A stretch of DNA of 7,351 bases from a virus (taxonomy: Duplodnaviria > Heunggongvirae > Uroviricota > Caudoviricetes), in IMG/VR virus record IMGVR_UViG_2693429524_000006, one strand, 5' to 3'. Positions 4,708 to 5,023 of the stretch are shown piece by piece. The notes beneath the pieces are model-generated. The model made no database searches. It worked only from the letters and a program-made list of their open reading frames with translations, and had not been told where the DNA came from. Position numbers and translations under genes: made by a program. Position 1 is the stretch's first letter; the number at the start of each line of letters is the position of its first letter.

Positions 4708-4769
4708 GATGGCGTCTCCACTTAGCGAATTACATCACCACCGCTGAGACCAATCAGATGGTGGTGAAC

Positions 4770-4860
4770 TGAACGGAGTTGGTCTTACCGGCCTAAGTGG
4801 TACCGGCGTCCTTTCGGACCCCCATTCAGCCCACCATAATTCTGGCATGACTGTGCTATA
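4770..4860 (-). ncRNA. candidate c4-like antisense RNA domain, copy C (variant specificity); boundaries approximate
   Basis: minus-strand loop CCACTTAG (plus 4793-4800) complementary to CTAAGTGG at the SD (4718-4725) and upstream (4895-4902); AGACCAA (plus 4779-4785) complementary to TTGGTCT (4747-4753 and 4912-4918); GNRA hairpin 4808-4819. Confidence 0.45.
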
Positions 4861-4865
4861 CGCAT

Positions 4866-4888
4866 AAAAAAAACCACGTCTGGCGTGG
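4866..4888 (-). terminator. intrinsic terminator or attenuator inside the antirepressor C leader
   Basis: on the minus strand CCACG-CCAGA-CGTGG followed by 8 T. Confidence 0.6.
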
Positions 4889-4979
4889 TATGCGCCACTT
4901 AGTAATCCGGGAGACCAATCCCGGCACTGGATTTTGCCAGTGCATGATTACTATGGCACAAGAGGAGTGCGATGTAAAT

Positions 4980-5023
4980 TTACCGCAAAGGTAATGATAA
5001 GCGCTAAGAAATATTAAAATCAA
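4980..5023 (-). promoter_or_regulatory. leader promoter of antirepressor C (TTGATT-N18-TATCAT) with TTACC-N5-GGTAA repeat
   Basis: minus-strand -35 at 5018-5023, -10 at 4994-4999, inverted repeat 4980-4994. Confidence 0.5.

Follow-up and report, generated by a model that had tools for sequence, protein, structure and literature searches.

Why should one prophage carry two antirepressor-family genes behind leaders that resemble mirror images of each other, but differ in every element through which their RNAs could pair? The question is raised by a 7351-nucleotide (nt) stretch of viral DNA (IMG/VR record IMGVR_UViG_2693429524_000006), the whole of which was analysed and is referred to here as the window. 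The sequence identifies the window as the accessory, 'immI-like' part of an E. coli prophage related to epsilon15, phiV10 and TL-2011b. Its two divergent genes, antB (Bro-N type; 2182–2877, plus strand) and antC (AntA type; 4051–4707, minus strand), probably each stand behind a complete antisense module of the kind represented by immI of phage P1 and IsrK of the Salmonella prophage Gifsy-1, and are gated independently of each other. On the basis of model matches the two leaders, termed B and C, are both members of the Rfam C4 and isrK families, so that the mechanism they suggest is a known one and not a new one.

Leader B starts with tandem sigma-70-like promoters on the plus strand (1869–1898, TTGATT-18-TATCAT; 1914–1942, TTTACA-17-CATAGT with an extended TG), the second of which has its start near position 1949, coinciding with the 5' end of the match to the isrK model. 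The IsrK-like short RNA (1949–2024; isrK Hfq-binding RNA family RF01394, 77.9 bits with a gathering threshold of 50) carries element a1 (TTGGCGT, 1974–1980) in a hairpin loop, then element b1 (CTAAAAGG, 1990–1997) and, after b1, an intrinsic terminator (2005–2024). The c4-B antisense RNA domain follows as a full-length match to the C4 model (2049–2134; RF01695, 77.7 bits with a gathering threshold of 45); b' (CCTTTTAG, 2092–2099) is located in the loop of its second hairpin and a' (ACGCCAA, 2106–2112) in a single-stranded linker. Beyond the domain are a2 (TTGGCGT, 2138–2144) and b2 (CTAAAAGG, 2166–2173), the latter positioned over the AAGG Shine-Dalgarno sequence of antB and ending 8 nt before the ATG at 2182.

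Leader C has the same parts on the minus strand: tandem promoters with hexamers identical to those of leader B (4950–5023); an IsrK-like short RNA (4867–4943; 67.7 bits) with a1 (TTGGTCT, 4912–4918), b1 (CTAAGTGG, 4895–4902) and an intrinsic terminator after b1 (4867–4889); a full-length c4-C domain (4757–4841; 61.2 bits) with b' (CCACTTAG, 4793–4800) and a' (AGACCAA, 4779–4785); and then a2 (TTGGTCT, 4747–4753) and b2 (CTAAGTGG, 4718–4725), which overlaps the GGAG Shine-Dalgarno sequence of antC. In both leaders a2 and b2 are exact 7- and 8-nt complements of a' and b'. The minimum-energy folds of c4-B and c4-C each consist of a long outer stem, a GNRA tetraloop hairpin and a second hairpin that displays b' in its loop, with a' in the linker. 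The c4-a1b1 model (RF03163, gathering threshold 46.7) scored 45.1 bits on leader B and 37.6 bits on leader C; exact a1 and b1 copies are present in both, and the isrK model, which overlaps it, exceeds its own threshold.

A sequence-only reading of this locus had described leader C as an inverted, near-identical copy of leader B in which all three copies of a and all three copies of b are altered in concert. The alteration and its positions were confirmed: element a is TTGGCGT/ACGCCAA in B and TTGGTCT/AGACCAA in C, element b is CTAAAAGG/CCTTTTAG in B and CTAAGTGG/CCACTTAG in C, and on alignment the substitutions fall at mutually complementary positions, every one of the six elements being altered at two bases. 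Near-identity, however, applies only to the 5' 140 nt, comprising the promoters and IsrK-like hairpins, which are 94% identical (9 differences, 4 of them within a1 and b1); over the full alignment 63 of the 330 columns differ (81% identity), and the half from c4 to the ATG is approximately 25% diverged. Two further stems said to differ in sequence while keeping their structure do so, the GNRA hairpin being GCACC-GAAA-GGTGC in B and GTCC-GAAA-GGAC in C, and the terminator stem ACCGC/GCGGT in B and ACCACG/CGTGGT in C. The outer stem of c4 contains an additional compensatory double change between the leaders (2064/2065 with 2119/2118).

The annotated immI regions of P1 (NC_005856) and P7 were then aligned with leaders B and C. 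All four have their parts in one order, with tandem promoters (P2c4/P1c4 in P1), a1, b1, a terminator-like hairpin, c4, a2 and finally b2 with the ribosome binding site; the linker again contains a', and the hairpin loop b'. Between P1 and P7, exactly two bases are substituted in every one of a1, b1, b', a', a2 and b2, which is also the pattern that separates B from C; element a is TTGACAG in P1 and TTAGCAG in P7, and element b GTTAGTG and GATTGTG respectively. Since the two-base change extends to all six elements in both pairs, the difference between B and C is of the same kind as the P1/P7 hetero-immunity difference; the comparison with P1 and P7 made in the sequence-only reading is therefore upheld by family membership, by the order of parts and by the form of the substitutions. 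Papers citing the original work describe c4 of P1 and P7 as an antisense repressor that acts in trans, sets hetero-immunity and controls icd-ant1/2 (Citron and Schuster, 1990), and a1/b1 were proposed to compete with a2/b2 for c4 (Citron and Schuster, as quoted in the supplement to Weinberg et al., 2010). Weinberg et al. (2010) described the c4 family, the a1/b1 motif and their wide spread in Proteobacteria.

There are also differences from P1. In P1, icd lies between b2 and ant, and ant is coupled to the translation of icd, whereas antB and antC follow b2 directly, with no intervening open reading frame (ORF). The Ant proteins of the window are of Bro-N and AntA type, unlike Ant1/2 of P1; the host element is an epsilon15/phiV10-like prophage as opposed to the P1 plasmid prophage; and two specificities that are distributed over two phages in the case of P1 and P7 occur here within one genome.

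Selection on RNA–RNA pairing, which had been proposed from the two leaders alone, was examined in related cassettes gathered from IMG/VR with degenerate patterns and from GTDB genomes; 165 were parsed from IMG/VR, where a third scan added 18 loci, and the GTDB scan yielded 12 loci, all single-cassette. In 164 of the 165 cassettes a1 and a' are exact reverse complements, and an exact a2 lies no more than 60 nt downstream in every one of the 165. The 165 cassettes comprise 24 a'/b' types, with five a variants (GGCGT, GGTCT, GGAAC, TGCAC and GAGAC) and at least a dozen b variants that assort independently; a-TC, for example, is paired with b-AAAA, b-AGTG or b-CAAA. In pair counts on an alignment of 31 distinct configurations, five of the seven pairs of the a1:a' helix were changed on both sides, and 99.5% of its cells were paired; for the a':a2 helix the figures were four of seven and 95.4%, by comparison with 33–46% of cells paired when the partner was slid by 1–3 columns as a control. 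The c4 helices were 92.6–100% paired across the 31 variants, with both-side changes in the outer stem and GNRA hairpin. Because MAFFT moved the C-type b' loop and b2 by one column relative to the B type, the b pairs were left out of these formal counts and were scored by longest complementary run and duplex energy; among 59 distinct cassettes, at least 7 contiguous pairs were found for b':b1 in 57 (non-cognate mean 4.7) and for b':b2 in 58 (non-cognate mean 6.2). Column entropy was 1.0–1.3 bits at the variable positions of a and b, and 0–0.1 bits in the invariant stems of the flanking hairpins. The same matching was found in nine further enterobacterial genera (Klebsiella, Citrobacter, Enterobacter, Kluyvera, Cedecea, Buttiauxella, Scandinavium, Atlantibacter and Erwinia). 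Given this recurrent three-way matching, the pair counts and the entropy pattern, selection on RNA–RNA pairing in these leaders is well supported.

Functional evidence on a locus of this type comes from Gifsy-1 in Salmonella (isrK–orf45/STnc1160–anrP), where compensatory mutation shows G28 and G31 of the a1 region to pair with C162 and C159 (PMC4825925); by our own numbering, C162 and C159 appear to correspond to a' of the aligned leader. The short form of IsrK activates antirepressor translation in trans (PMC4825925). As in leaders B and C, a short terminated RNA is followed by a read-through mRNA encoding the antirepressor, and pairing of a1 with a' in cis (helix b-I of Gifsy-1, 'structure A') is as predicted for both leaders. 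The Gifsy-1 model requires translation of orf45, and the locus was likened in that study to P4 and not to P1 c4 (PMC4825925). Within the c4 domain, orf45 starts at the conserved AUGGUGGG. In leader B the frame at this position runs for 35 codons from the conserved ATGGTGGG (2053–2160, plus strand) and ends 21 nt before the antB ATG; in leader C it has only three codons (4837–4826, minus strand; ATG GTG GGC TGA). With a stop at codon 4 in leader C, translational coupling through orf45 cannot be general and was rejected as a general model.

Taken with the experiments on P1/P7 and IsrK, this anatomy suggests how each module would operate. Transcription would begin at the tandem promoters, and the first 76 nt would constitute the IsrK-like RNA, with a1 in a hairpin loop, b1 and the intrinsic terminator. 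Read-through would produce the c4 domain, with b' displayed by a hairpin loop and a' by the single-stranded linker, and the transcript would continue through a2 and b2, with b2 over the ribosome binding site of ant. The c4 RNA is probably excised by RNase P, as in P1, where the product is about 77 nt long, and pairing of its a' and b' with a2 and b2 would block ant translation. Repression would be relieved when the a1/b1 RNA, either as part of the read-through transcript (in cis) or as the separate short RNA (in trans), pairs with a' and b' and so removes c4 from the mRNA. As all six elements differ by two bases, each c4 should fit only its own decoy and its own mRNA, and one prophage could thereby gate two antirepressors independently. 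By analogy, B and C would be two hetero-immune specificities, acting in trans without cross-reaction, and a lysogen would also be expected to repress incoming ant genes of two specificity types.

Predicted pairing energies agree with this in direction. Cognate duplexes of the single elements have energies of −9.3 and −8.0 kcal/mol for a, and −7.4 and −9.9 kcal/mol for b, by comparison with −4.4 and −2.9 kcal/mol (a) and −3.0 and −1.7 kcal/mol (b) for the cross duplexes. Summed over a and b, the values are −16.7 (B on B) and −17.9 kcal/mol (C on C) versus −7.4 (c4-B on C targets) and −4.6 kcal/mol (c4-C on B targets). Complementarity within each leader is thus preserved, as had been claimed, but pairing across the leaders is weakened and not abolished, although it had been read as broken. 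RNAcofold applied to whole c4 domains and whole targets gave 0 to −2.4 kcal/mol for every combination and was set aside; it cannot model loop–loop contacts without opening the c4 stems, and element- and region-level duplex energies were therefore used instead.

Several findings nevertheless weigh against this reading. The c4-a1b1 model scores just under its gathering threshold in both leaders. On C targets, c4-B keeps 4–5 contiguous pairs plus wobble, with only one mismatch per element because two G-U wobbles are tolerated; and in an unconstrained duplex search over whole target regions the cross energies were −12.5 and −13.6 kcal/mol versus −18.6 and −21.3 kcal/mol for the cognate combinations, a narrower gap. 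Neither a1 nor b1 of cassette L107 (about 11146–11463) fits its own c4, and in the third cassette of contig IMGVR_UViG_3300045988_096329 (L013+L098; 9302–9632) a1 does not fit its own a'. A cassette arranged back to back with this third one has an a' that the non-fitting a1 does match, and both the third cassette and L107 look, from their sequences, like recombinants between neighbouring cassettes; the existence of such chimeric leaders indicates that a perfect decoy match is not strictly required. Lastly, co-resident cassettes sometimes share one element (a in L012 and L024; b in L002 and in cassettes 2 and 3 of contig 096329), and if one shared element is sufficient for pairing then orthogonality would be only partial.

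Granted that the modules are functional switches of the P1 type, their two codes may still be in one locus without having been selected to differ: recombination would draw from a diverse pool, and random draws usually differ. We regard this as a strong contender, falling only a little short of an even prospect. Two random cassettes share their type with a chance of 0.13, and with approximately 10 contigs that are not independent and that carry two or three cassettes, the lack of any repeat is unsurprising (0.87^10, or about 0.25) and zero matches are not significant. Mosaicism is also evident, in the 96–97% repeats at the 3' ends of the ant genes, in the chimeric leaders and in the Bro-N gene, for which at least 14 different a'/b' combinations were recorded; the AntA-type gene had the TC/AGTG code in front of it in 26 of 26 cases. 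Nothing decisive stands against an unselected origin, although no co-resident pair in the sample shares both elements, and cassettes that did so would co-regulate both ant genes and create long identical inverted repeats.

A more far-reaching proposal, which we make tentatively and consider possible rather than probable, is that enterobacterial prophages carry a natural library of c4/IsrK switches with a two-part code (in the survey, at least 5 a and at least 12 b variants that recombine freely, decoy, antisense and target always co-varying), in which co-resident modules have been selected to be mutually orthogonal and conflict between phages diversifies the code. If so, one prophage would gate two or three antirepressors independently. 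The corresponding avoidance of same-type cassettes within a locus was not detectable as a significant depletion, in an underpowered sample of approximately 10 multi-cassette contigs.

A third explanation is that the leaders are purely cis-acting switches, alternating between a fold in which a1 and b1 pair with a' and b' and the c4 fold, with a2 and b2 free or occluded; there would be no action in trans, and the two 'specificities' would be diverged copies with no meaning for immunity. In the minimum-energy folds of both full read-through leaders (−104.1 and −100.1 kcal/mol, z approximately −5.0 for both), a1:a' and b1:b' are indeed paired in cis, and a2 is in the loop of a new hairpin. This agrees with 'structure A' of Gifsy-1, demonstrated by mutation and compensation (PMC4825925), and Weinberg et al. 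(2010) allow for c4 sometimes acting in cis. Covariation of a and b is predicted equally by the cis fold and by trans pairing, and it is from the experimentally studied relatives that we infer trans action here: c4 of P1/P7 is, in the citing papers, a trans repressor that sets hetero-immunity (Citron and Schuster, 1990), and the short IsrK works in trans (PMC4825925). Further, transcripts that end at the terminator after b1 would form a short a1/b1 RNA of their own, and a switch confined to cis offers no reason for variation to be concentrated in the recognition bases while the stems are invariant. We therefore consider a purely cis-acting switch unlikely. It is very improbable, despite the truncated P22-type antirepressor gene (5142–5489) and repeated fragments nearby, that either cassette or both should be remnants undergoing decay in a region rich in morons and prone to recombination, with matches that are inherited and not maintained: each ant ORF is intact and has its start codon and Shine-Dalgarno sequence, the two c4 domains exceed the Rfam gathering threshold, promoters and terminators are intact, and identical B-type and C-type leaders occur in many independent contigs.

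The proposed pair of independently gated P1/IsrK-type modules can also be set against other elements with such RNAs. Barquist et al. (2013) refer to an 'IsrK-C4 immunity system' in P4, P1, P7, N15 and lambdoid Salmonella prophages. In the APSE phages of Hamiltonella, which are podovirus-like and temperate, isrK and c4 likewise lie directly upstream of a Bro-N gene, but one c4 and one isrK are reported per genome, without reported specificity variants (PMC7313666). Acinetobacter baumannii AB5075 has many C4-like RNAs in one genome, differing mainly in the a' region; their co-option for host targets was proposed, and matched a1/b1 and a2/b2 sets beside ant are not described (PMC5320573). The CA RNA of N15 (with icd-antA/B/C; Ravin et al., 1999) and the CI RNA of P4 (seqA/seqC) share with leaders B and C a small processed RNA, complementary sites up- and downstream and an anti-immunity operon. 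A further likeness to N15 is that AntC carries the AntA/AntB Pfam domain PF08346. The N15 CA RNA acts by the same premature-termination mechanism as the P4 CI RNA. Premature transcription termination by CI RNA is described in the Gifsy-1 paper (PMC4825925); the location of b2 on the Shine-Dalgarno sequence in the window points to a translational block, unlike P4.

In a literature search of incomplete coverage, we found no account of two hetero-specific c4 modules in one prophage or of a combinatorial a-by-b repertoire, and the two-code arrangement is possibly undescribed. If our reading is right, the principle of P1/P7 hetero-immunity, whereby two-base changes are copied into six elements, extends to modules inside one prophage and is used combinatorially across many prophages of E. 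coli and other enterobacteria. The comparison links three literatures that are usually separate (P1 c4, Salmonella IsrK and Rfam c4-a1b1), speaks against generalising the orf45 coupling model, and provides natural, apparently orthogonal triplets of antisense, decoy and target as material for deriving rules of RNA specificity or for synthetic circuits.

The promoter regions of both leaders contain an operator-like palindrome, TTACCTTTGCGGTAA between the two promoters of leader B (1898–1912) and TTACCGCAAAGGTAA between those of leader C (4980–4994). Both are instances of TTACC-N5-GGTAA, which has six sites in the window (172–186, 273–287, 1805–1819, 1898–1912, 2950–2964 and 4980–4994) by comparison with 0.18 expected, and 421 sites in 1.5 Mb of related loci. 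Of 141 related leaders, 140 have it at this position between the promoters; its arms are conserved and its spacer varies. The palindrome looks like a putative operator of a dimeric repressor, placed as the C1 operator of P1 is; P1 has the C1 operator at its c4 promoter, and leaders B and C have TTACC-N5-GGTAA there instead. The P1 C1 operator itself (ATTGCTCTAATAAATTT) had no match in the window with up to three mismatches allowed.

AntB and AntC are, by the names of their families, antirepressor-family proteins. AntB has a Bro-N domain (Pfam, E = 2e-21) and AntC an N-terminal domain of the AntA/AntB family (PF08346, E = 4e-26), and these N-terminal domains are unrelated. Their C-terminal 80 amino acids are common to both and to the product of a third gene, antA, of which the window contains the 3' end (1–98, plus strand) and whose leader lies outside it; a related contig has three cassettes. 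The near-identity of the last 80 codons and 3' flanks of antA, antB and antC (96–97%) is seen in a direct repeat, D1 (1–184 and 2779–2962, 97%), and an inverted repeat, I1 (2622–2900 versus 4028–4306, 96%). Near-identical 3' ends combined with unrelated N-termini suggest that the cassettes have exchanged domains or undergone gene conversion.

Regarding the host element, 67% of the window is covered by phage TL-2011b at 99% identity, and the best-matching E. coli chromosomes are those of UTME strains (77–79% covered, 96% identity). The truncated P22-type gene (P22_AR_N; plus strand) adjoins leader C and carries a pseudogene annotation in relatives; in TL-2011b the neighbourhood is occupied instead by a P22-like arc-ant pair. 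Between the two ant cassettes, on the plus strand, is a gene for a YafO-family toxin (3179–3724; Pfam E = 8e-6), and a 59-codon ORF that lies upstream and overlaps it (3025–3204) could encode the antitoxin. On the minus strand, divergent from leader B and with one TTACC-N5-GGTAA site between, a gene at 1056–1784 encodes a protein of 242 amino acids with an apparent N-terminal membrane segment and a Cys-rich C-terminus; its match to Stc1 is weak (E = 4e-4) and below the cutoff. Finally, a 62-nt direct repeat with a terminator hairpin within it occurs at 996–1057 and 3940–4001 (97%). The first copy, which lacks an ORF, resembles a recombination scar; the second supplies the 3' end of a small ORF, and the N-terminus of this ORF, MKKAFAALFVLLSLVASTQAFA, looks to the eye like a signal peptide.

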